From a virus, in the IMG/VR virus record IMGVR_UViG_3300006077_000002, positions 29,818 through 93,817 of that record: 64,000 nt of DNA, one strand, 5' to 3'. Positions within the stretch are counted from its first letter, which is position 1. Each line of letters starts with the position of its first letter. The position numbers and the translations under genes are program-made. Positions 6,572 through 61,610 of the stretch are shown one piece after another. The notes under the pieces were generated by a model. It ran no database searches and was not told the DNA's origin. It worked only from the letters and a program-made list of their open reading frames with translations.

Positions 6572-9541
6572 TTAAAGTGTTGCTTTGTATCTATAGAATG
6601 TTCCGCCTAAGCTCACAAACATATATGTCCCATCTTCGCTAAAAGATAGAGAGTATAATGGGGAAGTTCCATATTCAGAGTGCCAACTATTTCCAGAGTA
6701 AGACATTCCATTAGTTACATCAAATGGATTCGTAAGTGAGTATTCATATACTCTATCATCATCATATCCACCGATAAAAAGTTTAGTTCCATCAAGATTA
6801 AATGCCATGTTCTCCATCCATAAATCTTGAGGTCCTACGTTGTAGCTACCTTCAGCAACCTTTCCTAACAACGTCCAAGGAGTTGGTAGGTGGAATTGAT
6901 GAATAAGAGCACTTGAAGAAAGTAGTTCTAGTACATACACCTTAGTACCATCTCTATTAAAGATAAGTCCTCCAGGCATGAAACCAGTACTGACCCAGAA
7001 GTCTTCTTGGTAGAATGCATCAGCTCCCGCAAAAGACCAAGCATCTGTAAGCTCAATAGTTAGTACTCTATCAGGGTCAGCATTAAGTCCTGTATTAGTT
7101 CCTACAAAACATTTCTTTCCATCAGCTGACATAAAGATTCCTCTAGGTCCCTGAGAGTAACTTACAATGGAAATAGAATTTCCTGAGTACGTCATCGTGG
7201 TCAAGTCCCAAGGAGTAGTTAAGTTATACTGTCTGACATAATCACCATCAGCGTCAACCAAAAACATACGGAGTCCATCAGGTCTCCATACATGTTGCAG
7301 TGGTTGGACAGCAGGTGATAAAGACCCTGTCTGTTGAGAAGGACCAGTTGCAGATAGTTCCCACCCAATAACAGGAGGAGCATAATTAGTTGCATACTCT
7401 AATAATATGGTATCTGCAGTTGCTGCAGTATATCTAAATACATCAATAGCTCCACCTCCAGAAGTAAGTGTTGGCTGCCCTCCTTGAAGTTTAAAATCAT
7501 TATCAAATGTAACTGGATTATCTGCGTATGTTTGTCTAAGAGTAATTGTTCCAGTATCTCCAAGGGTCATTCCACTGGTTGTAATGGTTGTACTTTGGTC
7601 TATTGAAAAATCAAAGTAATTACCAAGAGAGCCATCAACTACTAGAGTTGGTGAACCACCATCCGTAACTACTCCACCTCCTGAAGAGCCTCCACCATCA
7701 AGTACCCAAGCACCATTAGTGTTGGTATAATATGTAGCAGTCTTTGCAACTCCTGGAGTTAATGTAAGAACTGCAGAAGAGCTAATAGAAGTCATTGTTG
7801 CTCCCACTGCATTTAGAAAAGTTACTGCAGCTGGGTCCATATCAGAGGTAATACTAACATTAAGTACTGGAGTTGCATTCTCATCAGTAATTTCATCTAC
7901 CTCTACCGTACTACCTGGAGTAAGTGTAAGAGATACACCATTAACTTCAATAGTAGCATCAATAAATTTATCAGTATTTAAGTCAGAGATTATAAATCCA
8001 AGACCAGACATAGGTCTTCCATCAGGTTCTCCAGCAACATCATACCCAATAAATACTAAATTAAAACTAGATTCATTTGGACTAGGAGAAATTGTTCCAG
8101 ATACAGGGGCAGCAGAAAAAGTAAGAGTACCATCACTTACATAGAAAGATGCAGGTTCTCCTACTATCTGAGCGTACCCTGAAGTGGTAACTGTTTCCTC
8201 TGGTGTGGATACTCCAGAAGTTATAAGTGCAAACTTATCTCCTGCAGTTGTTCCAGTAACAGGAATTAGTGTATCACCAGAATGTGTGACAACTTGTCTA
8301 GTCCAAGCTCCATCATACTTTGCGTATCTATCTGCAATTTTACCTACAGTACCACCAACATTAGTGACCTGCCCGTCAAAGCCATCTAGGTCATCAGGAG
8401 CTGTAGCACTCCAAACAACTGCATTACCTGAAGTTCCAAAAGTATCTTCAGCATACTTCTTTGTAATTAAGGCATTGTCCTCAGTGAACGTAGGATTAGG
8501 AGCAATAATCTCTCCAGATTGTCTAACCTCAATACCATTTTTATCTGCTAATGTATTACCTATACCAAGTACAAAAGCTGTACTGGCAGGGGGAGTGACA
8601 TTAAAATTTCCCAATACTGTTTGTGTGTGGTCATTATCTATAGATGCTGTAAGATGCTCACCCACCAATAAGGTGTTACCAGTGCTTGCAGTATTATAAT
8701 TACCAACAATAATAGAAGAAAAGTTTCCAGTGGTAGTTGTATTATTACTACCAAATACTGTAGCCAAACCTAAAGGTGTACTATTTGTGCTTCCAACTAC
8801 TGTGGAATGTATACCAACATCATTACCACTTCCAACAGCTATTGATGCTGAATTAGTAGTATTATTAACTCCATACATTATTGCAGAAATATTAGCACTA
8901 CCTATATATTCATTTGAAGAACCTATGGAAACACCAGAACCATTGGACATATCATTACTGTAACCAATAGCAACTACAGAAGTACCGTTAGAGTTTCCTG
9001 CAGTATTGCTTGAACCAATAGTAATAGCTTTTGAATTATTTGCTGTGTTGGCAGAGCCTACTGCAATAGTATCAGGAGCTAAGGCTGAACTACTATATCC
9101 CATAGCAATTGAATAATCACCAGCTGCAGTAGTATTTTGCCCACTAGAAAACGAATAGTCTCCTGTTGACCCTTGAGTTCCTGCAGAAGATTGTACTGAT
9201 AAGTCAACTGCACCGTTACCTATATCACCATGATTAGCTGCTAATTCTTGAACTAGCCTCCAACCGTAGCCTACACTATCATCAGAAATATAGTCTAATC
9301 CAGAACCTGTGCTTGATGTAGGAAGGGAAACCCATGCTGCATCTTTCCTTACATACTCAGTACCATCGCTTGGTGCTTCACCAATACCTGCTGCTGGCAT
9401 AGGAATCCATGTACCATTCTGTCTTACATATGGAGTATTGTCACTGATACTATCTTTTATAAATCCAGCATTAGTGACTACAGTTTCAATTGTCGGTGCA
9501 TCCTCCCCTAGGAGGACATCTGTTAAGTTAATAGTTGCCAT
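6572..9541 (-). CDS. Tail fibre / receptor-binding protein (YadA-head-like repeats, C-terminal beta-propeller)
   Basis: 989 aa; SIAxG/AVGSxN repeats; C-terminal FxxDGTKxF repeats; two foldon-like motifs. Confidence 0.75.
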   Translation of the reverse strand: MATINLTDVLLGEDAPTIETVVTNAGFIKDSISDNTPYVRQNGTWIPMPAAGIGEAPSDGTEYVRKDAAWVSLPTSSTGSGLDYISDDSVGYGWRLVQELAANHGDIGNGAVDLSVQSSAGTQGSTGDYSFSSGQNTTAAGDYSIAMGYSSSALAPDTIAVGSANTANNSKAITIGSSNTAGNSNGTSVVAIGYSNDMSNGSGVSIGSSNEYIGSANISAIMYGVNNTTNSASIAVGSGNDVGIHSTVVGSTNSTPLGLATVFGSNNTTTTGNFSSIIVGNYNTASTGNTLLVGEHLTASIDNDHTQTVLGNFNVTPPASTAFVLGIGNTLADKNGIEVRQSGEIIAPNPTFTEDNALITKKYAEDTFGTSGNAVVWSATAPDDLDGFDGQVTNVGGTVGKIADRYAKYDGAWTRQVVTHSGDTLIPVTGTTAGDKFALITSGVSTPEETVTTSGYAQIVGEPASFYVSDGTLTFSAAPVSGTISPSPNESSFNLVFIGYDVAGEPDGRPMSGLGFIISDLNTDKFIDATIEVNGVSLTLTPGSTVEVDEITDENATPVLNVSITSDMDPAAVTFLNAVGATMTSISSSAVLTLTPGVAKTATYYTNTNGAWVLDGGGSSGGGVVTDGGSPTLVVDGSLGNYFDFSIDQSTTITTSGMTLGDTGTITLRQTYADNPVTFDNDFKLQGGQPTLTSGGGAIDVFRYTAATADTILLEYATNYAPPVIGWELSATGPSQQTGSLSPAVQPLQHVWRPDGLRMFLVDADGDYVRQYNLTTPWDLTTMTYSGNSISIVSYSQGPRGIFMSADGKKCFVGTNTGLNADPDRVLTIELTDAWSFAGADAFYQEDFWVSTGFMPGGLIFNRDGTKVYVLELLSSSALIHQFHLPTPWTLLGKVAEGSYNVGPQDLWMENMAFNLDGTKLFIGGYDDDRVYEYSLTNPFDVTNGMSYSGNSWHSEYGTSPLYSLSFSEDGTYMFVSLGGTFYRYKATL

Positions 9542-9565
9542 AAGGCTCCTTTTTAAATAATCCCA

Positions 9566-10705
9566 TTAGGGGCTTGGAGTTACCACAATGTTCCCATTGT
9601 TTGTAACAATTCTTGTAAACGCATCATTTACAACATATAGTAGCTGAGGTGCTAAAGTATTACTACGAGCTTTTCTCATCTCAAAGGTAGCAGTAACTAC
9701 GTACCTACCAAAACCAGCAGCTTTGGCAGAGTATCTTCCTATAAACTTAAATAAGTAGGTGTTGTAGTCAATGATAAACCAGTCAGCTTTAAATAGTGAC
9801 ATACCATTATTACATATATCCTCATAAAAATATCTAAACTTCATCATATCATCTCTATCCGCCATAAGAAATGTCAGAGTGACAATAGGATTAGCCCCAA
9901 ATCTTTCAACTTGGTACGGAGCTATTAGCCCAGCTTCCTTAGTTGCTGCGTCAGAAGATTTAAAAGACGCAGAAGAGTAATTAGGTGCTCCTAATTCTTC
10001 AGGATATTTTTTAGGAAGTACTTCTGCAGAACTCATATTAAAAAGAATATCTACTTCTTCTGAAGTTATAGCCCTATTAAAGATTCTAAGTGTTTGTACT
10101 TGAGCTCCACTACCACTAAAGGCATTTCGTATCTCAAATATAGGAGTAATTCCAGAGTTAGGTGAAGGATTCCAATCTCCTAACTGCCGATAGGTAGCGT
10201 CACTTCCTATATAGGCCCTATAGAATCCATCATCGGTATATGATACTGCTATTGCATAGTCACCTGCAGGATTACCAGTAGACGAGAAGCTTTGGAAAGT
10301 TCCATCTCCCCAACAACTTATGTCTATAGTCCCTACAGTATTATTAGTTACTCTAATACCATGACTTGCTTGTGAGTTAAACAATGTAGCTGCTGCAGAA
10401 TTTGTTAGACTTACTACCATAAAATAAGAAACAGCAACACTATTAGGGGTAGTAGGATATCCTAAGAATCCAGGAGTTGAAACATCTACAACAACCTTTT
10501 GTGAATCAGCTATTGAGTTATATCTTAAATCTATTGAATCTCCGTATGCTCCAGGAGCATACTTAATATCTTCTTCTGGAATAGGTACACCATACCCATC
10601 AGTTACTCCACCCATGCCAGAGAAAATATCTTTACCATTCTCAAACATAGGAATATAGAATATCTGAGAGGCATCATTAAATGGGTTATTTGTATCTCTA
10701 AGCAT
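9566..10705 (-). CDS. LamG/concanavalin-like domain fused to a distal-tail-like domain
   Basis: LRIFNRAITSEEV LamG-type ending; C-terminal part resembles the 10698-11066 protein. Confidence 0.55.
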   Translation of the reverse strand: MLRDTNNPFNDASQIFYIPMFENGKDIFSGMGGVTDGYGVPIPEEDIKYAPGAYGDSIDLRYNSIADSQKVVVDVSTPGFLGYPTTPNSVAVSYFMVVSLTNSAAATLFNSQASHGIRVTNNTVGTIDISCWGDGTFQSFSSTGNPAGDYAIAVSYTDDGFYRAYIGSDATYRQLGDWNPSPNSGITPIFEIRNAFSGSGAQVQTLRIFNRAITSEEVDILFNMSSAEVLPKKYPEELGAPNYSSASFKSSDAATKEAGLIAPYQVERFGANPIVTLTFLMADRDDMMKFRYFYEDICNNGMSLFKADWFIIDYNTYLFKFIGRYSAKAAGFGRYVVTATFEMRKARSNTLAPQLLYVVNDAFTRIVTNNGNIVVTPSP

Positions 10706-27714: not shown

Positions 27715-29082
27715 TTACGCTAAGAATATAGTTCCTGCTGATGATTGTCTTACATATGTATAAATACAATACCGCAAAGCAGCGATGAGGTCCCAGTGGT
27801 GAGACCTGTCAGGTGGTGGTGCGAATAAGTCTCCGCCAGTTGCAGCAGAGGCAGCTCCGTTCTTGTACTCCACGTTAGATATCTGATGGATTAGTTCGGT
27901 AAGCTCACTGCTAATATAAAGTTTAGGTCTACGATTCATACCCTGAGGTGCGAACATATCGTTAAGACACTGAAGGCCAGGTGCAACTTTGTTGGTGGCC
28001 TTACCTATAAAGTAGTTGTAGGTTGACGCAAGGTCAAGCAATGTTTGTGCAGCTGAAGGGTCACCATAGCGACCAGCACACACAGCATCTCCAAACCACT
28101 CATCTTGCTTCCTGAAGTTTTCCAAGTGTTTCTTAGTTGGCAGTTGGTTCTTCATATAAGCTTTAGCTACATACATATCTCCAGCAGAGTTTACATAAGC
28201 TGATATCTGTGCAGTGGAGTCACTTAGTCCAAAGTCATAGCCACTAATATATTTGCACCCACTAAGGTCAATGCTATCAGGGTCATAGATATTAATATCT
28301 TGGTCAAATGCATGGAATACTCCAGAACCTGTGCTAACCCACTCGGCTAATATTTCCTGACGATATGTTAGGTCAGGCAACAAGTCCTTCTGTGCTTCCA
28401 AATAAGCTGCTGGAAGCAAGGGGTTACAAGTGCTGGGTGAAGAGTAAGAGCGGTAGTTGGAAAACTTACCAAGTTCTGCTCTCTCAAACAATGTGTGGAA
28501 CTCTGTGTTCTTACCACGAGGTGTGCCAAGGAATACAATGTTAGCATATAGGATGCCAGACGCTCGCAGTCCGTAGTCCAAGAGCATTGGTCCCAACTCT
28601 TGGTTAAGGATTTCAAGTACTCCACTTACAGATTGTGTCTCGTCCACAACCAACAGAGAACAACGTGAACCTAGGGCTGACGAAATGTTAGACTGTGTGA
28701 AAGAACCAAAGGCAGCTCCGTTCTCCAATGTAATTGTAAAGGCACCCTTATTAATTTCCGCCACGGGAAGTTCAAGTTCGTGTACAAATTTCAATACTTC
28801 TTTAAATAGAATCTTCGAGTTCTTATAGGATGGAGTAAGGAGGATAGTGTTGGAGAATGGTATAAGAAGTTCTCTTAGTACAATAAGTGCTGTACTTAAG
28901 GACTTACCTGAACGACGACCCAGACAAACAACAAATACATTGGCTGAATTGTCCTCATCGAAGTCTTTAATGATGGGAGATTGTCCCGAATGTGGTGTCA
29001 TATTGACTAAATCCCACACCTTTTGTAGAGAAATCTTATCAGAAACCTGCTGATATATCTCTATTTCTTTATTAATAAGCAT
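27715..29082 (-). CDS. terL: Terminase large subunit (T5-like)
   Basis: GRRSGKS Walker A, LLVVDE Walker B, GTPRG, YRQEILAEW, GYDFGLSD, HHWDLIAALRY. Confidence 0.95.
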   Translation of the reverse strand: MLINKEIEIYQQVSDKISLQKVWDLVNMTPHSGQSPIIKDFDEDNSANVFVVCLGRRSGKSLSTALIVLRELLIPFSNTILLTPSYKNSKILFKEVLKFVHELELPVAEINKGAFTITLENGAAFGSFTQSNISSALGSRCSLLVVDETQSVSGVLEILNQELGPMLLDYGLRASGILYANIVFLGTPRGKNTEFHTLFERAELGKFSNYRSYSSPSTCNPLLPAAYLEAQKDLLPDLTYRQEILAEWVSTGSGVFHAFDQDINIYDPDSIDLSGCKYISGYDFGLSDSTAQISAYVNSAGDMYVAKAYMKNQLPTKKHLENFRKQDEWFGDAVCAGRYGDPSAAQTLLDLASTYNYFIGKATNKVAPGLQCLNDMFAPQGMNRRPKLYISSELTELIHQISNVEYKNGAASAATGGDLFAPPPDRSHHWDLIAALRYCIYTYVRQSSAGTIFLA

Positions 29083-29202: not shown

Positions 29203-29580
29203 ATGATGGAATTATCAGAGACAATTAGAGTTAAGTACGCTTCAGGGCTGTACTCAAATACAGAATTGGTGCTAGAATACAGCCCTTTGGTTGGTGCTAT
29301 GAAGGTACTGGAGATATTAAACTATGCGGTGGATAAAGATGTGCGTCCTGACCTACAAGGTATCATTGAGGACATGCCTAAAGTGCATACGATAACCTCT
29401 TTATACCATCGAGAGCTTCGTGAGAGTCATACACAGATTGAAGGAACCACTGAGACAACTGCTTGGAAAGACCGTGAGTTTGCAATTGATAAGCGTAGGT
29501 TAGACTTTAAGCTACGAGAAGAGTTGAGAGCGTATCCTTGGGTAACCCCAGATGTCTTGTCAAAGCTATATCATGACTAA
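29203..29580 (+). CDS. Hypothetical protein (C-terminal LSKLY tag)
   Basis: AAGGAG RBS; 125 aa. Confidence 0.7.
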   Translation: MMELSETIRVKYASGLYSNTELVLEYSPLVGAMKVLEILNYAVDKDVRPDLQGIIEDMPKVHTITSLYHRELRESHTQIEGTTETTAWKDREFAIDKRRLDFKLREELRAYPWVTPDVLSKLYHD

Positions 29581-30148
29581 GACCTGTACCAAATGTGGTG
29601 TTACAGCCACAGGTCAGGGCCAGATAATTAAAGAATTCGTTAAGAGTTCTGGGTATAAGTACGGGATAGAAGCTACGTGTAAGCGTTGTCATAACCTAGG
29701 GAAGACTGCCAATGATGTTGTTGGCCCATACTCACTCCTTACGGAGAAGCCTAGCCCTAAGGTATGTGCTTGTTGTGGTAAGGAGAGCTATGTATATGGT
29801 AGAGACTTCCGCCATGTTAGGTCAACCAGAGCAAGTTCCTCAGCATATCTTCCTATATGTAAGGGATGTGAGCAGGTTGCTTGCTTGGTATTGGGAGAGT
29901 TTCAACACTTAATACGTGAAGGTAAACACCTGGAAGGTGGACCAGAAGACCCTTGGTATAAGGAGCTGTTATCAGCCTTCTATTTAATGACGTTGGGTCA
30001 TATACCAGACCGTGATGTACTGAGCTTCCCAGCTCGCTACGCATTACCAAATGGAACGCCGTGTGTACGGTCAGCAAAACGCATCTGGCAAATCAAGCTT
30101 GATGTTGGTTATTCTCAAAAGGAGATTGTAGATGAAAGTGGATTCTAA
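29573..30148 (+). CDS. Zn-finger protein (two KxCxxCG...CKxC units)
   Basis: KTCTKCG..CKRC and KVCACCG..CKGC; start refined to the ATG at 29573. Confidence 0.65.
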   Translation: MTKTCTKCGVTATGQGQIIKEFVKSSGYKYGIEATCKRCHNLGKTANDVVGPYSLLTEKPSPKVCACCGKESYVYGRDFRHVRSTRASSSAYLPICKGCEQVACLVLGEFQHLIREGKHLEGGPEDPWYKELLSAFYLMTLGHIPDRDVLSFPARYALPNGTPCVRSAKRIWQIKLDVGYSQKEIVDESGF

Positions 30149-30569
30149 TATTGTAGGTACGGATGGTTCAGATAAACTGTTGCCAAACTTTACTGAACTC
30201 GAAACTAAGATACTGGTGGCCAGCCTAGAGGGCGGCTCAACAAAACAAATTGCGGCTATGCTTAGGGTTCCCCCTACGTTCATCCGTACGTTCTTGAACA
30301 AGGGGAAGGTTAAAGAATACCTTAGAGAACAGAAAGAACTGGCCGCAGAATTAGTACAGCTTAAGATTCAAGAGCTTCTTACTGGAGTTGTTGAACAGCG
30401 TATTGAAGAAGCGGATGGTGATATGTCAAAGATAACTAAGAAGGATACTCTTGAAGTTATTAAGGTGTTGCAAGACATCAGCTCTGGAATTGTTAAAGGT
30501 GCCCAGAAGAGTGAGAGCGAGGATAAGTATGCTGCTATCCTTGGGTTGGTGATGAAAGATGAGGACTGA
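30132..30569 (+). CDS. terS: Terminase small subunit (T5-like)
   Basis: N-terminal HTH, VKEYL, RIEEA...TKKDTLEVI and C-terminal KYAAILGLV resemble T5-type TerS. Confidence 0.65.
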   Translation: MKVDSNIVGTDGSDKLLPNFTELETKILVASLEGGSTKQIAAMLRVPPTFIRTFLNKGKVKEYLREQKELAAELVQLKIQELLTGVVEQRIEEADGDMSKITKKDTLEVIKVLQDISSGIVKGAQKSESEDKYAAILGLVMKDED

Positions 30570-30738: not shown

Positions 30739-31507
30739 GAGACAGCGTTGGGTTTACAACTATAAGTCCCCCGTCCCTCGTTTAGGAAAGGAAGGTGCTG
30801 GAATAGAACCACCTCTAATAGTTCCTGGAGTTGAACAGTTGATATGCCTAGGCTGTGGCACTGAGATTAATATCCTTAGAGCTAAGAGTAGGTTCAAAGA
30901 TGATACCAATCGTATGCTGAAGACATTCTCTGGGTTCTACCCTAAGCAGCCTGAGGCTTGTGCATGTGACCTTATGGAAATTGAGGTTAGTCTTGAGGGT
31001 CAGCTCACAGTACGGTCAGACAGCCCAGAACTAATTAGGTGGCAGGTACGAAGTCCTAAGGGGTTGGTCCTTACGCTTGCCCGTTCATTGGGAAATGATA
31101 TTCCTACATACATCTCCCCACCACTGGAGGAGTATTCCAAAACTGTGTACAAGAATCCCAAATGGGAAATCGAGATGTTAGACCACTTGGATATGCACCA
31201 GTTCAAACCTAAGGAGCGAGAGGTTGTACTGCCAGGCACTGATGCTGACAGAGATTTCTTCCTTCGTTGTTATGCCTACACCTACAAGGTGTGTGTCTCA
31301 GAGAACCAAAGTACATACCTACCAACAGGTCATAGGGTTTCTTACAATCCTGACCTTAAGGGCGAGAGGTCTTACCCAGAACACCTCATAGCCAACCTTC
31401 ACCTTCGTTCCCTCTCGCCCCTGCGGTTAGAACTTGAAGGAATAACAGACCCTTTCCATAGGGCAAACCTCACACTGCAATATGCTAAAACTTTGAGGGT
31501 TCCATAA
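30731..31507 (+). CDS. Hypothetical protein (possible Zn-binding)
   Basis: 258-aa ORF with CLGCG and CAC. Confidence 0.6.
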   Translation: MTKRQRWVYNYKSPVPRLGKEGAGIEPPLIVPGVEQLICLGCGTEINILRAKSRFKDDTNRMLKTFSGFYPKQPEACACDLMEIEVSLEGQLTVRSDSPELIRWQVRSPKGLVLTLARSLGNDIPTYISPPLEEYSKTVYKNPKWEIEMLDHLDMHQFKPKEREVVLPGTDADRDFFLRCYAYTYKVCVSENQSTYLPTGHRVSYNPDLKGERSYPEHLIANLHLRSLSPLRLELEGITDPFHRANLTLQYAKTLRVP

Positions 31508-31604
31508 CCTCCCCCAGAATAACCTCCCCCAGAATAACCTTAGGGGAACCCCCAGAATAACCTTAGGGGAACCCCCAGAATAACCTTAGGGGAACCTTAG
31601 GGGA
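31503..31604. repeat. Short tandem repeats CCCCCAGAATAACCT(TAGGGGAA), candidate genome-end/packaging repeats
   Basis: Four near-identical units directly visible. Confidence 0.85.
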
Positions 31605-31691
31605 CTTTCAAAAACCTCCCGCAAATTTCTGGCTATGGGCCCTGGGGTTTGAACCTTAAGTATACCTTAACCCTCCCCCTCTACCCCCTAA

Positions 31692-32675
31692 GTGTTACTA
31701 ATAGTTACACCTCTGTTACCTTTCGTAACACTTCAACAATTCTTTTCCTATTTAAGCAAGACTTAAGAAAGAACTCACCTCAGAAACTCCTTATATTTAA
31801 TATAAGTGTTACCATTCGTAACACAACAGAAATAAACAGGTGTACCTAAGGTCACGCTTAAGGTCTATCGAAGGTTACATCTGAGTGAAAAATTCTTTTT
31901 GTGCTTTAAGCATATCTTAAGGAAGAACTCGCATAGGCTAAAAAGAGGCTCCTTCATAACATACCTTCAAATAAGCTTAAAGTCTAAATGATAATGATTA
32001 TCATAGTCACTTTCATTTCACTTTTTGACTCTTAAAAGGGTAAAAAATACACCCCTAAAAACAGGGCTATAAACGCCCTAAAATCGCTTAAAGGCACGAA
32101 AAAACGGTATGAATATATTGATGTACTAAACAGCGTTATACACGTACAGACCCCTTAAAAGGCTTTTAAAGGTGATAATGATAATCAATACGGACTGTAT
32201 AACTTTTAACCAATTTGTTGTATAAAAAGTAATCAATAAGAAAAACTTATACTGATAACGATAATCAATACCATAAAGGGACGGCACGCTAAATGATAAC
32301 GATAACCAAAATCAAAACCAAAGGACTCCTAAAGTTAATTGATAACGATACTCAATATCATAACCGCTATTCTAATTGATAATGATAACTAATATCATAA
32401 CCAAAGGACTCTAAAGCTAATTGATAACGATAACCAAAATCAAAACCAAAGGACAATAAGGGCTAATTGATAATGGTTATCACTATCAGAACACTTTAGG
32501 TCACGCCCTAAATGATAATGACTATCAATATCGCCCCTGAGAACTCTTCTAATTGATAATGATTATCACTATCGCACCCCTGAAGTAGGACTAAATGATA
32601 ACGATTATCAATACGGCTAGTGACGATGAAATTCCAAATTAAAGCGTCAATTCAGGGTGTTACGAAAGGTAACAC
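31692..32675. promoter_or_regulatory. Four copies of palindrome GTGTTAC-N5-GTAACAC (31692, 31713, 31806, 32657)
   Basis: Direct inspection; 0-1 mismatches per copy. Confidence 0.7.
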
Positions 32676-32797
32676 AACAGAAAAAAACATTGCTTGAAAA
32701 AGGCGATTTAAGCTTAGATTAAGAAAGAAGTGGGTACTCTCGCACGTTGCGTGTTTCTATATACTTTTTAAGGGCAACTAAATGAGAATGATTATCA
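31989..32797. promoter_or_regulatory. Array of 12 Fur-box-like 7-1-7 palindromes (TGATAAY-G-ATWATCA)
   Basis: Starts at 31989, 32173, 32253, 32294, 32340, 32377, 32422, 32468, 32513, 32554, 32596, 32783; two are perfect TGATAATGATTATCA. Confidence 0.8.
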
Positions 32798-32943
32798 ACT
32801 GAAAGTAATCTTAAGAAAAAATATTAATTTAAAATCCATAGGAAACTCTTTTTTATACACGTTATAATTTCGACGTTCCAAATATGAAGATTGATTTTTA
32901 ACTTTTCTCTTTGGACGTGATTTTTTAAAACGTGAAACAAATG

Positions 32944-32977
32944 GTAAACGAACGGTAAATGAAGTTCGTGCTATACT
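32944..32977 (+). promoter_or_regulatory. Candidate early promoter GTAAAC-N5-GTAAAT-N11-TATACT (extended -10 TGC)
   Basis: Same spacing as the other plus-strand promoters; upstream of the first early gene. Confidence 0.5.
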
Positions 32978-33540
32978 TTCACTGTTCGACTGATTAAGCC
33001 TGAGAGTAAAATCTCTAAATCAGATAACATCTTTTTTTGTAACAATCTCCCTGCTAGTCTACTTCAATTTAGGAGTAGGTGATAAGGGTAACACCTCAAA
33101 AAATACCATTGTCAAAAATCTCAAAATATGAAAAATTTGAGTATCCATAAAAAAAGTTGAAATTTTAGAATTTCATCTGTTTATATAGGGCGGTTGTAAA
33201 ATCTTTGTTAGTTAAAAGTAATGTATTGCCTATAACATTTTGATAACATTAGTTATCTGTAAATGGCGGTATAACACTATATAAACGGTTGATATTATTA
33301 TAGGAAGATAAATGCTTTCTATCTATTCATTAAAAAACTAATATAACGTAAAACGTATTGGATAGCACTTCGCTTTGTAACTAGGGCTAAATCTATGAAG
33401 TGTGAACGGGTGATAATAAAAATCATAAAGCCCGTTTTTTAATTTGCTTTCACCGTTTCAAAAAGTATCTTTTTAGGTATTTTTTGAAGTGGTAAAACAC
33501 TCAAATTTCCCGCAATTAAGCGGACAAAAAAGGGCTTATT

Positions 33541-34335
33541 ATGGCTAAAAATACTACAAAAAACACGGCAACTACACCTGCGATTGAAACTGAAACTACT
33601 CTAATCACTGATGAAAACACGGTTATTGGTACGGGTATTCTTAATGAATTAGCGGATAATTTGGTAGCGGTTGATACATCATCAATTAAATTTTTCAAAT
33701 GGGCGAAACAGGTTTACACTGACGGCGGTTCAAAAAACAGTGAGGCTAGTTTTGCAGAAGTTGAAAAGCTAATTGCAAAAACTTTAAGTGATGTTCACGT
33801 TAAAAGCATTGTAAACCGTGTTAAGAAAATTAACGGCATTGTGTATGATGTTTACAAAAATGGTTTGATGTTTGAAGTTGATTTGGTAACTTTTGGAAAT
33901 ATTGAGAGTGCTACACAATTTATAACAAGCCGTACTAAGGCGGTAACTGAGGGAAATCCGATTTTCAAAAAAGTTGATGGGAAATTAACTCCAACCACTC
34001 TAAAAATTGCAAAGGGTGCAATGACTAAGGCGGTGAATAAAGCGTATAAAGAAACGTGTAAAGCAAATGGAGTTAAAAAATTGGTAGCCTCACATCACCG
34101 TCAATATAACAATCTTTTAACAGATTTGGTTGATGATGTTACAAAAATGTATGTAACTGAAAAAGACGAAGAGGCAAAATTTGAAGCCCTTAACAAGATG
34201 ATTGAGGCATTCTTGGAGGGGTGTACTGTTGAACACAGAAAAGCACTTGAGGCAAAATTCTCAAAAGAGGTAGCGGTTAATACAACTGAAAAAGCACCTG
34301 AAACTACGGAAGAAATGGAAGCAAAAGTTTCTTAG
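33541..34335 (+). CDS. First early (pre-early) hypothetical protein
   Basis: 264-aa ORF with RBS. Confidence 0.8.
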   Translation: MAKNTTKNTATTPAIETETTLITDENTVIGTGILNELADNLVAVDTSSIKFFKWAKQVYTDGGSKNSEASFAEVEKLIAKTLSDVHVKSIVNRVKKINGIVYDVYKNGLMFEVDLVTFGNIESATQFITSRTKAVTEGNPIFKKVDGKLTPTTLKIAKGAMTKAVNKAYKETCKANGVKKLVASHHRQYNNLLTDLVDDVTKMYVTEKDEEAKFEALNKMIEAFLEGCTVEHRKALEAKFSKEVAVNTTEKAPETTEEMEAKVS

Positions 34336-51786: not shown

Positions 51787-53016
51787 ATGAAAAAATTCAC
51801 AGGACGATTTAGTCCATCACCAACTGGTAAGCTTCATTTAGGAAGCCTTCGTACTGCACTTATCTCTCATATTATCAGTGATACTTTCGTCCTGAGAATT
51901 GAAGATACAGATGCAAAGCGTTCAACTGTGGAGTCAGAGCAAGAAATCATTGAGTCATTCAAGTGGCTTGGTATTAAAAATGATGGGGAAATTGTTAGAC
52001 AATCTGACCAAGAGAAAGGTGGAGTATATTCTGACTTAGCAAATAAACTTGTTGAGGCTGGATATGCCTACCGTTGTAACTGTACTGTAGATTATCTGCG
52101 AGCTATGAAAACTCAGCAGATTAAAAATAAGGAGCGTCGCCTTGGGTATAATGGAAAATGCCGTGAGTCAGGAAATACTGAGGGAGTCATTAGACTTAAT
52201 GCACGGAAAATCGGAGAAGAAAGAGGTGATATCTTCTTTCGCTTTGAAGATGATGTTTTTGGTACTCGTCGTGTTGATTTTAGAGATGTTCCTGATACAG
52301 TTCTTACTAGAGCAAATGGTACAGCAACATATATACTCGCCAATACATTCGATGATATGTTGGCAGGAGTGGACTATGTAGCTCGTGGTGCTGACATCAT
52401 TACTCAAACAGCAACACAAATTGCACTTCGTGAGGCTATTCACTTGGCAACAGGAATCCCTAACCCTGAAGTTCACTATTCACACTTACCGTTAATTCTT
52501 GGTGCAGAGAATCAAAAGCTTAGTAAGCGTAATGAAGATACAAAGTCTATCTTAGACTATCGTGCTGAAGGATTTACTCGTGAAGCAATCATTCAGTTTG
52601 TATTAAGCTTAGGTAACAAATCAATCTCTACAAGTCATGCAATGACAGTGGAGGAGATTAAACAAGCCTATAATCGTACATCATTGAGACGTAACGACAC
52701 AGCATTTCTTGAGCATAAACTCAAACACTTAAATGCAATGCATCTTAAGCGAATGGATACCTCAAAACTTGTGGCAGAAGTTGAAGAAGTCTATGGTGTA
52801 GCCCTTAGTACAAAATTAGTTGGAGCATTTAAGTACCGTGTAAGTACTATGCTTGAACTAAAAGAGAAATGTGAGCAGTTTGAGGGATTAGTTGCAGCAA
52901 AGCCAGAGGCATTGTCTGCACTTGAAGCTTCAGGATTTTCAGTAGATGGATGTAAAGCATTCAGAACAGATGCGTTGGGAGGAATGAGAACACCTCCACT
53001 TAAGGAATTATTATGA
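51787..53016 (+). CDS. Glutamyl-tRNA synthetase-like enzyme (GltX/GluQ-RS family)
   Basis: RFSPSPTGKLHLGS (HIGH), FVLRIEDTD, AYRCNC Zn site, RGAD, HLPLI, KLSKR (KMSKS); short C-terminus. Confidence 0.9.
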   Translation: MKKFTGRFSPSPTGKLHLGSLRTALISHIISDTFVLRIEDTDAKRSTVESEQEIIESFKWLGIKNDGEIVRQSDQEKGGVYSDLANKLVEAGYAYRCNCTVDYLRAMKTQQIKNKERRLGYNGKCRESGNTEGVIRLNARKIGEERGDIFFRFEDDVFGTRRVDFRDVPDTVLTRANGTATYILANTFDDMLAGVDYVARGADIITQTATQIALREAIHLATGIPNPEVHYSHLPLILGAENQKLSKRNEDTKSILDYRAEGFTREAIIQFVLSLGNKSISTSHAMTVEEIKQAYNRTSLRRNDTAFLEHKLKHLNAMHLKRMDTSKLVAEVEEVYGVALSTKLVGAFKYRVSTMLELKEKCEQFEGLVAAKPEALSALEASGFSVDGCKAFRTDALGGMRTPPLKELL

Positions 53017-60935: not shown

Positions 60936-61610
60936 ATGACCACTAAACAATTAAAAATAACTTCGGCTAACTTAGCTGAAGACTACCCACTAACTTCTCA
61001 ATTTGTGAATGGTATCTATGGCTTAGCTAAAAAGCTTAGCTACCAGATAGCAACAAACAAAGCTGTAGATAGTCATGATGACTTCTTTCAAATCATGTTG
61101 GTTGAAGCCTGTAGGCTTGAGCCAAAGTTTGACCCTGATAGAGGGACAAGTTTCTACTCATTCATTAACAGACCTTTAAGAGCAAAGATGTTTAAAGAGT
61201 TCATTGATGTTGACCGTGGCGGAGATAACTACAAGAAGATTAAAGAGTTCATCAAAGGGTACCAAGCAGATAAACATATATTTCCATCAGTGGAAATTAT
61301 CAGTGATGAGCTTGATATCCCATCCGATGTAGTTCGCCTTGATTATTATGGCAAGACACAAACAATCAGTGTTGATGATTGTGATGACTTGTTATTATCT
61401 GACGAGGTTGATGGGGTGAACCCAATGGACTATGTCAAATACCTTGAGCCTATAGAGCAGTTGGTAATCAGCTTACTCTATTCTGAAATACCTGAGGATA
61501 TGGCTGATGTATTTACGAGACAGTACTTAATGATTACCCAAGAAACTTTGGAAGAAATCAGAGACATCTCTCTAACCAAACTTAAGGGGTTAATAGATGC
61601 AGAGGATTAA
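60936..61610 (+). CDS. Phage sigma70-family (FliA/WhiG-like) sigma factor
   Basis: DDFFQ...KFDPDRGTSFYSF region 2; PSVEIISDELDI region 3; LEPIEQLVISLLY region 4. Confidence 0.8.
   Translation: MTTKQLKITSANLAEDYPLTSQFVNGIYGLAKKLSYQIATNKAVDSHDDFFQIMLVEACRLEPKFDPDRGTSFYSFINRPLRAKMFKEFIDVDRGGDNYKKIKEFIKGYQADKHIFPSVEIISDELDIPSDVVRLDYYGKTQTISVDDCDDLLLSDEVDGVNPMDYVKYLEPIEQLVISLLYSEIPEDMADVFTRQYLMITQETLEEIRDISLTKLKGLIDAED

Follow-up and report, generated by a model that had tools for sequence, protein, structure and literature searches.

A dense array of Fur-type boxes in the non-coding hub of an uncultured phage, a candidate sink for host Fur

Why would a phage carry a dozen sites of the type bound by the bacterial iron regulator Fur, packed into a stretch of DNA with hardly any coding capacity? 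The question is raised by an uncultured phage, of which we analysed positions 29818-93817 of the 93,817-bp IMG/VR record IMGVR_UViG_3300006077_000002. This whole stretch of 64,000 nucleotides is called the window below, and coordinates are positions in it unless another genome is named. The original prediction, made from the letters of the window, took the sites for a candidate DNA decoy or iron-sensing element at the end of the phage genome. The location at a genome end finds no support in the record, whose ends overlap by exactly 99 bp, which makes it an assembly circle with the array in its middle.

The array stands between two blocks of genes. To its left, leftward structural (late) genes run up to the large terminase gene, terL (27715..29082, minus strand), and are followed by four small rightward ORFs, which encode a 125-aa product, an HNH-like product, a TerS-like HTH protein (30132..30569, plus strand; a weak PHROG match, 49% identical to its homologue in the metagenomic relative L103) and a 258-aa protein. 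The HNH-endonuclease-like ORF (29552-30148) lies between terL and the TerS-like gene, on the strand opposite to terL. To the right, the first gene (33541..34335, plus strand) encodes 264 aa of no family, 25% identical to the product of the L103 gene at the same position. The long rightward block found there looks early; it opens with many small genes of no assigned function and continues to helicase, DNA polymerase A, thymidylate synthase and RNA ligase. Shine-Dalgarno sites are clear for most genes, and a sigma-factor-like phage gene is present at 60936-61610.

The nearest cultured relatives of TerL are those of T5-like phages, at ~25% identity, the DNA polymerase shares ~30% identity with its counterparts in N4-like phages that infect Gammaproteobacteria, and for the portal protein cultured phages offer no match; by these comparisons the phage appears to represent a new, lytic-looking lineage. 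Metagenomic relatives with TerL at 73-82% identity are numerous, and L007 and L103 are the ones that we examined. Several TerL homologues (P0038, P0051, P0057, P0073, P0077 and others) are 600-800 aa long and carry homing-endonuclease domains (LAGLIDADG/Hom_end), and from this domain content they appear to be intein-interrupted terminases. A 409-aa GluRS-like protein is encoded at 51787-53016; the Atlas clusters closest to it are Glu-tRNA ligases of bacteria, commonest in Pseudomonadota. Together with the affinities of the DNA polymerase, this points weakly to a host that is possibly a member of the Pseudomonadota. No Fur homologue or other Fur-family gene was found in the phage genome.

The two blocks are separated by the largest ORF-free gap, a non-coding hub of ~2 kb (31508..33540; GC 0.32) that leads from the terminase module to the early-looking genes. 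The array region had been described as free of ORFs, which holds overall; the sole frame in it is a GTG frame of 53 codons on the minus strand. With the search pattern TGATAAYNATWATCA and at most one mismatch, we found 13 sites in the window, all of them in the hub (31989, 32173, 32253, 32294, 32340, 32377/32383, 32422, 32468, 32513, 32554, 32596, 32783 and 33411). The number expected is 0.18 for the whole window and 0.005 under a first-order Markov model built on the AT-rich hub, with no more than one site in any of 1000 simulations, and no other part of the 93,817-bp genome has a box at this threshold. Twelve of the sites, all in the same direction, form the array proper, which extends over 809 bp (31989-32797) and bears out the 12 copies originally counted. 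The thirteenth (TGATAATAAAAATCA, 33411..33425, plus strand) is located between GAACGGG and CCCGTT, in the loop of a hairpin-like stretch; it shows no conservation of its flanks and is probably a chance match outside the array.

The 12 boxes share a 26-nt consensus, CTAAwTGATAAyGATwATCAATATCA, which reads as four NATWAT-like hexamers, and all copies agree with the 19-bp Fur consensus at 14-18 of the 19 positions. Box 1 (31989..32003, plus strand; TGATAATGATTATCA) and the copy at 32554 are perfect TGATAAT-G-ATTATCA palindromes, the only two, as had been noted. The copy at 32555 likewise matches the classic consensus at 17 of 19 positions, as predicted, and at 18 of 19 on the other strand. Box 2 (32173..32187, plus strand; TGATAATGATAATCA) matches at 16 of 19, and box 12 (32783..32797, plus strand) has the form TGAGAATGATTATCA, a variant found also in T5. 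The nine boxes other than boxes 1, 2 and 12 form a tandem block (32248..32632, plus strand) of same-direction units of 37-46 bp, each made of the 26-nt box and a non-conserved spacer. From 32253 to 32610 the spacings are 41, 46, 37, 45, 46, 45, 41 and 42 bp, within the range first reported. Their mean of 42.9 bp agrees with the "about four helical turns" of the original prediction, but single spacings scatter by up to half a turn (~5 bp either way), so the sites are not helically phased.

How the array arose can be read in part from its repeats. The units at 32294, 32377 and 32422 represent a recent duplication, with 77-nt repeats (family D4) that are 62-82% identical to the reference copy, and the copy number of the array appears to have grown by tandem duplication. 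Over all pairs of units, the box cores are 85% identical, while the spacers are 24-28% identical, which is the random level. Conserved cores beside drifted spacers argue that the boxes are kept by selection. The three solitary boxes outside the tandem block share both the consensus and its flank.

Whether the motif belongs to Fur or to a paralogue was judged from known discriminating positions. In Bacillus subtilis, the boxes of PerR (TTATAAT) and Zur (TCGTAAT) differ from the 7-1-7 box of Fur, which gives a rule to tell them apart. At up to two mismatches, the phage DNA has 10 sites of the Fur form, three of the PerR form and none of the Zur form. As an independent check, we searched the genomes of 185,579 bacterial species for pairs of such boxes at a distance of 20-35 bp, which yielded 31 double-box loci, mostly in Bacillota and iron-oxidising Zetaproteobacteria; the phage host may be none of these. 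Seven of the 10 flanking genes tested belong to families of iron or siderophore uptake or synthesis, namely a TonB-dependent receptor, an FTR1 permease, a siderophore-type Peripla_BP_2 protein, two FhuC-like ATPases and two class-III aminotransferases, the last being typical of siderophore synthesis. The other three are two different ABC-type proteins and one protein without a family. As the double-box pattern lies beside bacterial iron-uptake genes, the identity of the motif as a genuine bacterial Fur box is well supported by sequence comparison, and the assignment to the Fur family made earlier is upheld. The phage boxes are of the same sequence type as bacterial Fur operators (19-bp GATAATGATAATCATTATC, 7-1-7 TGATAATnATTATCA), and, as in bacterial Fur sites, their hexamer-type extension allows two overlapping sites 6 bp apart. 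On the whole, we consider it rather probable that host Fur binds the array.

The layout, in contrast to the motif, is unlike that of a bacterial operator. Fur-site clusters in E. coli span 19-142 bp (PMC2189734). In bacteria such clusters are overlapping sites on promoters, whereas the phage has 12 separate units over 809 bp, ~42 bp apart and in one direction; this density is far above that of bacterial Fur clusters, in line with the original remark that it is more than a single operator needs. The nearest gene start is 750 bp from the array (750-1550 bp across the array), and no iron gene adjoins it. The hub contains eight sigma-70-like sites, against 8.3 in shuffled sequences, and two of them touch a box. 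A promoter proposed near 32944 is absent from the consensus promoter matches, and a tie of the array to a promoter finds no support in these counts. With promoter-like sites at the level of shuffles and the nearest gene start 750 bp away, we rejected the array as a classical operator. Because the boxes lie off recognisable promoters and are unphased, they would form neither an operator nor a precisely wrapped complex.

The boxes share the hub with other repeats. Three modules with the consensus GTTAC-N5-GTAAC + TTTAAGC-N5-CTTAAGrAAGAA are present, all on the plus strand, and both of their motifs are confined to the hub. Module 1 (31714..31773) consists of the palindrome GTTAC-N5-GTAAC followed by TTTAAGC-N5-CTTAAGAAAGAA; module 2 (31806..31927) has the same palindrome and a TTAAGC..CTTAAG motif, as in module 1; and module 3 (32657..32729), directly right of the tandem array, has the palindrome GTGTTACGAAAGGTAACAC and TTTAAGC..ATTAAGAAAGAA. 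Box 1 follows module 2 by ~80 bp and box 12 follows module 3 by ~75 bp, with the tandem block between these two boxes. GTTAC..GTAAC palindromes also occur in the hubs of L103 (6280-6680) and L007 (1-560), and together with TTAAGC/TTAAAC-type repeats they recur in the hubs of the relatives L103, L107, L110 and L112. The modules are likely to be protein-binding or promoter motifs of the lineage's own.

A further class of repeats lies directly after the 258-aa ORF, where perfect short tandem repeats (31504..31604, plus strand) comprise 2.5 copies of 15 bp and three copies of 23 bp. The hubs of relatives each hold a different perfect repeat: ~36 bp in three copies in L007 (700-820), 10 bp in eight copies in L104 (1805-1892) and 11 bp in 11 copies in L106 (5375-5487). 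The L007 repeat adjoins the homologue of the 258-aa ORF, just as the repeat of our phage adjoins that ORF. Such fast-changing repeats are candidate packaging or end-recognition sites, and either they or the palindromes are better candidates than the Fur-type boxes for sites of the lineage's own DNA-binding proteins. An Rfam search of the hub returned no RNA family. The hub contains no DnaA, LexA, Cheo or Zur box, and its two matches to the IHF consensus, at 33233 and 33282, both lie outside the array. Near and distant DNA searches of 50,697 phage records, with hub and array as queries, gave nothing useful, and single-protein scans with both hub-flanking genes returned no relatives.

Comparison within the lineage shows how far the array is shared. 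L103, whose TerL is 75% identical, has the same flanking genes, a syntenic gap of 1.7 kb and the same GTTAC..GTAAC palindromes, and its TerS-like protein is 49% identical with the HTH stretch included. Its hub contains no box, even at two mismatches. The complete 93.6-kb genome of another relative (G005) has no boxes above control, and neither do G003 and G006; among 23 metagenome relatives none has the array, and a few have isolated weak matches at 1-2 mismatches. Two more distant relatives, L107 and L112 (TerL ~45%), have 2-3 boxes in their hubs, of the closely similar form CTAAACGATAAyGATwATCACTATCA. From this distribution the array appears to be an accessory element, dispensable in relatives. 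We rejected it as a core element of packaging or replication in the lineage, as relatives with the same hub have no box or 2-3 boxes.

Outside the lineage, similar arrays do occur. An IMG/VR scan with the 19-mer returned 95 stretches, and several of these contain arrays. One group consists of relatives of the Pelagibacter phage HTVC023P, in which terS-terL is preceded, at a distance of 300-400 bp, by 3-8 units of TGATAATGATTATCAATATCA; HTVC023P itself, the nearest cultured relative of these terS-adjacent arrays, has none. In L083, an array precedes a TerS of a different family. The 9.5-kb contig L162 (G001:C61), which is binned in a 'Mollicutes' MAG, contains two arrays (2640-2926 and 8921-9497) of ~7 and at least 14 units with the CTAAwTGATAA flank, which bracket a run of rightward ORFs of 70-100 aa, and the contig resembles the early region of a phage with a hub on either side. 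No protein common to our phage and the array-bearing IMG/VR or MAG loci was detectable. The recurrence of arrays of one extended motif in unrelated phages with different TerS families suggests a common binder supplied by the host.

A different arrangement of the same box was seen in G009, the record of L072 (30,852 bp, with a terminal overlap). Between 4092 and 16417, the same perfect box (TGATAATGATTATCA, in either orientation) occurs eight times, and the copies are spread rather than clustered, at intervals of ~0.06-3 kb and mostly 2-3 kb. This phage may use the box as a regular gene-control signal.

The closest parallel in a cultured phage was found in T5 (NC_005859, L127), whose Fur-like boxes are confined to the terminal repeats. 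One of them, a perfect 7-1-7 box, is located at 233-247, 233 bp from the left end, and five units of TTTAAATGAGAATCATT(ATCA) are located at 9554-9713, inside the annotated injection-stop signal (iss, 9140-10149). The shear point of first-step transfer in T5 lies near 9618 (10.1101/866236, Davison preprint), and it falls among the Fur-like units. The same preprint discusses DnaA boxes, does not mention Fur and does not call the units Fur boxes, and it reports them as conserved across all T5-like phages (10.1101/866236). A LexA-type palindrome (TACTGTATAAATATACAGTA, 9380-9440) stands just left of the Fur-like iss units.

The T5 iss resembles our hub in that tandem Fur-like units (TTTAAATGAGAATCATTATCA), 20-48 bp apart, occupy a large non-coding stretch beside early genes, and the TGAGAAT variant of T5 is that of box 12. 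The differences are considerable. The T5 iss combines ~5 units with DnaA boxes and a LexA-like palindrome in a 10-kb terminal repeat, whereas the present hub has 12 units and no DnaA or LexA box; and T5-like phages conserve their units, whereas the relatives of this phage lack the array (L103, G005, G003, G006) or have 2-3 boxes (L107, L112). T5 A1, A2 and dmp had no match at E<=1 in the phage, although an empty result of such a search weighs little. Of the features that mark a T5-type iss, the paired DnaA boxes, the A1/A2/dmp genes and the conservation among relatives were not detected here.

What, then, would the array do? The explanation that we favour, tentatively and at somewhat less than an even chance, is that it acts as an iron-dependent sink for host Fur, for which we infer binding, titration, and titration as the selected function. 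The array would offer twelve sites to the host's own Fur, built by tandem duplication and preserved because selection acts on the boxes. When the cell is replete with iron, Fe2+-Fur dimers would load on each unit of 21-26 bp, which is roomy enough for two overlapping 7-1-7 sites and hence for two dimers. With every new copy of the phage genome another 12 strong sites would be added, which would come to outnumber the Fur sites of the host and draw Fur away from them, and the Fur regulon, with its iron uptake genes, would be de-repressed without any phage protein.

A sink is favoured because the array combines growth by duplication, selection confined to the boxes, the lack of phasing and of promoter overlap, and dispensability in relatives, and because it fits the principle of the FURTA assay. 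In FURTA, multicopy Fur boxes de-repress a Fur-controlled reporter by titrating Fur. The likeness is that many high-affinity boxes on replicating DNA should pull Fur off chromosomal operators; the difference is that FURTA is a laboratory plasmid assay, whereas the phage array is a natural element. Cells contain from a few thousand to ten thousand Fur monomers, and by a rough count 12 units, with 2-4 monomers each, on a few hundred genome copies would hold a quantity of the same order.

Some features speak against a sink. A sink could sit anywhere, yet the arrays of other phages cluster by terS or terminal repeats, which hints at a role in cis; this weighs little, since phage genomes offer room for arrays in their non-coding hubs only. 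The conservation of the units in T5-like phages would fit an essential cis role better than a decoy. The boxes point in one direction and have a conserved 5' CTAAw flank, neither of which is obviously required by a symmetric Fur dimer. Finally, the benefit of de-repressed iron uptake to a lytic phage is unproven.

Sites for host regulators on phage DNA have precedents. Virulent phages of Alphaproteobacteria carry CtrA boxes (PMC9437464), and a single Fur box stands before phage cargo genes in the sit operon on lambdoid phages (PMC6969025). In these phages, as in ours, sites for a host regulator are placed on phage DNA, where the state of the host may be read or exploited; the CtrA and sit sites appear to control particular phage genes, whereas the dense array stands 750-1550 bp from the nearest gene start and overlies no detectable promoter. 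Our literature searches returned solitary Fur boxes ahead of cargo genes on phages, and phage promoters with CtrA boxes, but no arrays of this kind, and the literature searched contains no description of a natural phage element that titrates Fur by multicopy boxes.

If Fur does bind, the array might instead be a cis-acting element of the hub that couples an end-related or early step to the iron state of the host, such as a pause or the protection of entering DNA, the start of early transcription, or packaging. A stretch coated with Fur would be the agent of this coupling. A host factor acting in cis has a parallel in lambda, which uses IHF at cos, and perhaps in the iss of T5. The place of the array between packaging and early genes agrees with such a role, as do the arrays 300-400 bp upstream of terS in unrelated phages, the confinement of the T5 boxes to the terminal repeats with five iss units around the ~9618 shear point, and the similar distance of ~75-85 bp at which boxes 1 and 12 follow hub modules. 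We nevertheless regard this role as unlikely, since relatives with the same hub, including the complete 93.6-kb genome, do without the boxes, the sites are unphased and overlap no promoter, and neither a T5 A1/A2/dmp homologue nor a DnaA or LexA box was found.

Similarly small is the probability that a phage-encoded protein recognises the Fur-like boxes, be they origin iterons, a partition or centromere-like site, or recognition sites of TerS. Direct, same-direction repeats ~42 bp apart with an asymmetric conserved flank are typical of iterons and pac boxes; the terS-like and terL genes are nearby, the hubs of relatives hold fast-changing repeat arrays of their own, and many neighbouring genes have no assigned function. 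The array resembles iterons and pac boxes such as SPP1 pacL/pacR in its direct repeats of ~20 bp, the spacing of ~40 bp and the non-coding location near packaging genes. It differs from them in that it is not conserved in relatives that keep the TerS-like protein, and in that its motif is common to unrelated phages and bacterial iron promoters. TerS sites in particular fit poorly with L103, in which a TerS-like protein 49% identical, HTH included, goes with zero boxes, and the palindromes are shared instead. Short perfect repeats, the class found in the hubs of relatives, form a separate element of this hub, at 31504-31604. Beside the array we found no initiator, no ParB-like protein and no further DNA-binding family, and among the neighbouring genes tested (four to the left and 14 small ones to the right of the hub) no DNA-binding domain was found apart from the TerS-like HTH match. 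Moreover, arrays of the same 21-mer are found in phages without any protein in common with ours, and even at the positions that discriminate PerR and Zur the motif is that of the bacterial Fur box.

A broader reading would make Fur a general host factor of phage hubs: unrelated phages would recruit iron-loaded Fur to arrays close to genome ends or packaging genes, and its occupancy would gate DNA entry, end protection or packaging by the iron state of the cell. It would cover this phage, in which the array would have been amplified to twelve units, as well as the HTVC023P-like marine phages, the T5 iss and others; we consider it quite improbable. That the array is a functionless, recently expanded tandem repeat, whose AT-rich unit resembles a Fur box by chance, would fit the evident tandem duplication (77-nt repeats 62-82% identical to the reference copy), the tendency of the lineage's hubs to repeat expansion and the absence of the array from relatives, but is highly improbable given the random-level spacers (24-28%) beside box cores at 85%, the consensus and flank kept by the three solitary boxes and the recurrence of arrays in unrelated phages.

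A sink for host Fur thus remains the preferred explanation, and it can be examined even though the phage is uncultured: since conservation of the Fur box extends across phyla, a clone of the array fragment is testable in E. coli. Iron limits growth in many habitats, and iron uptake receptors are common phage receptors. If Fur loads on these arrays, phages would have a protein-free means of manipulating, or reading out, the chief iron regulator of the host cell. In T5, Fur boxes in the iss would offer a concrete host partner for a pause that has been unexplained for decades.
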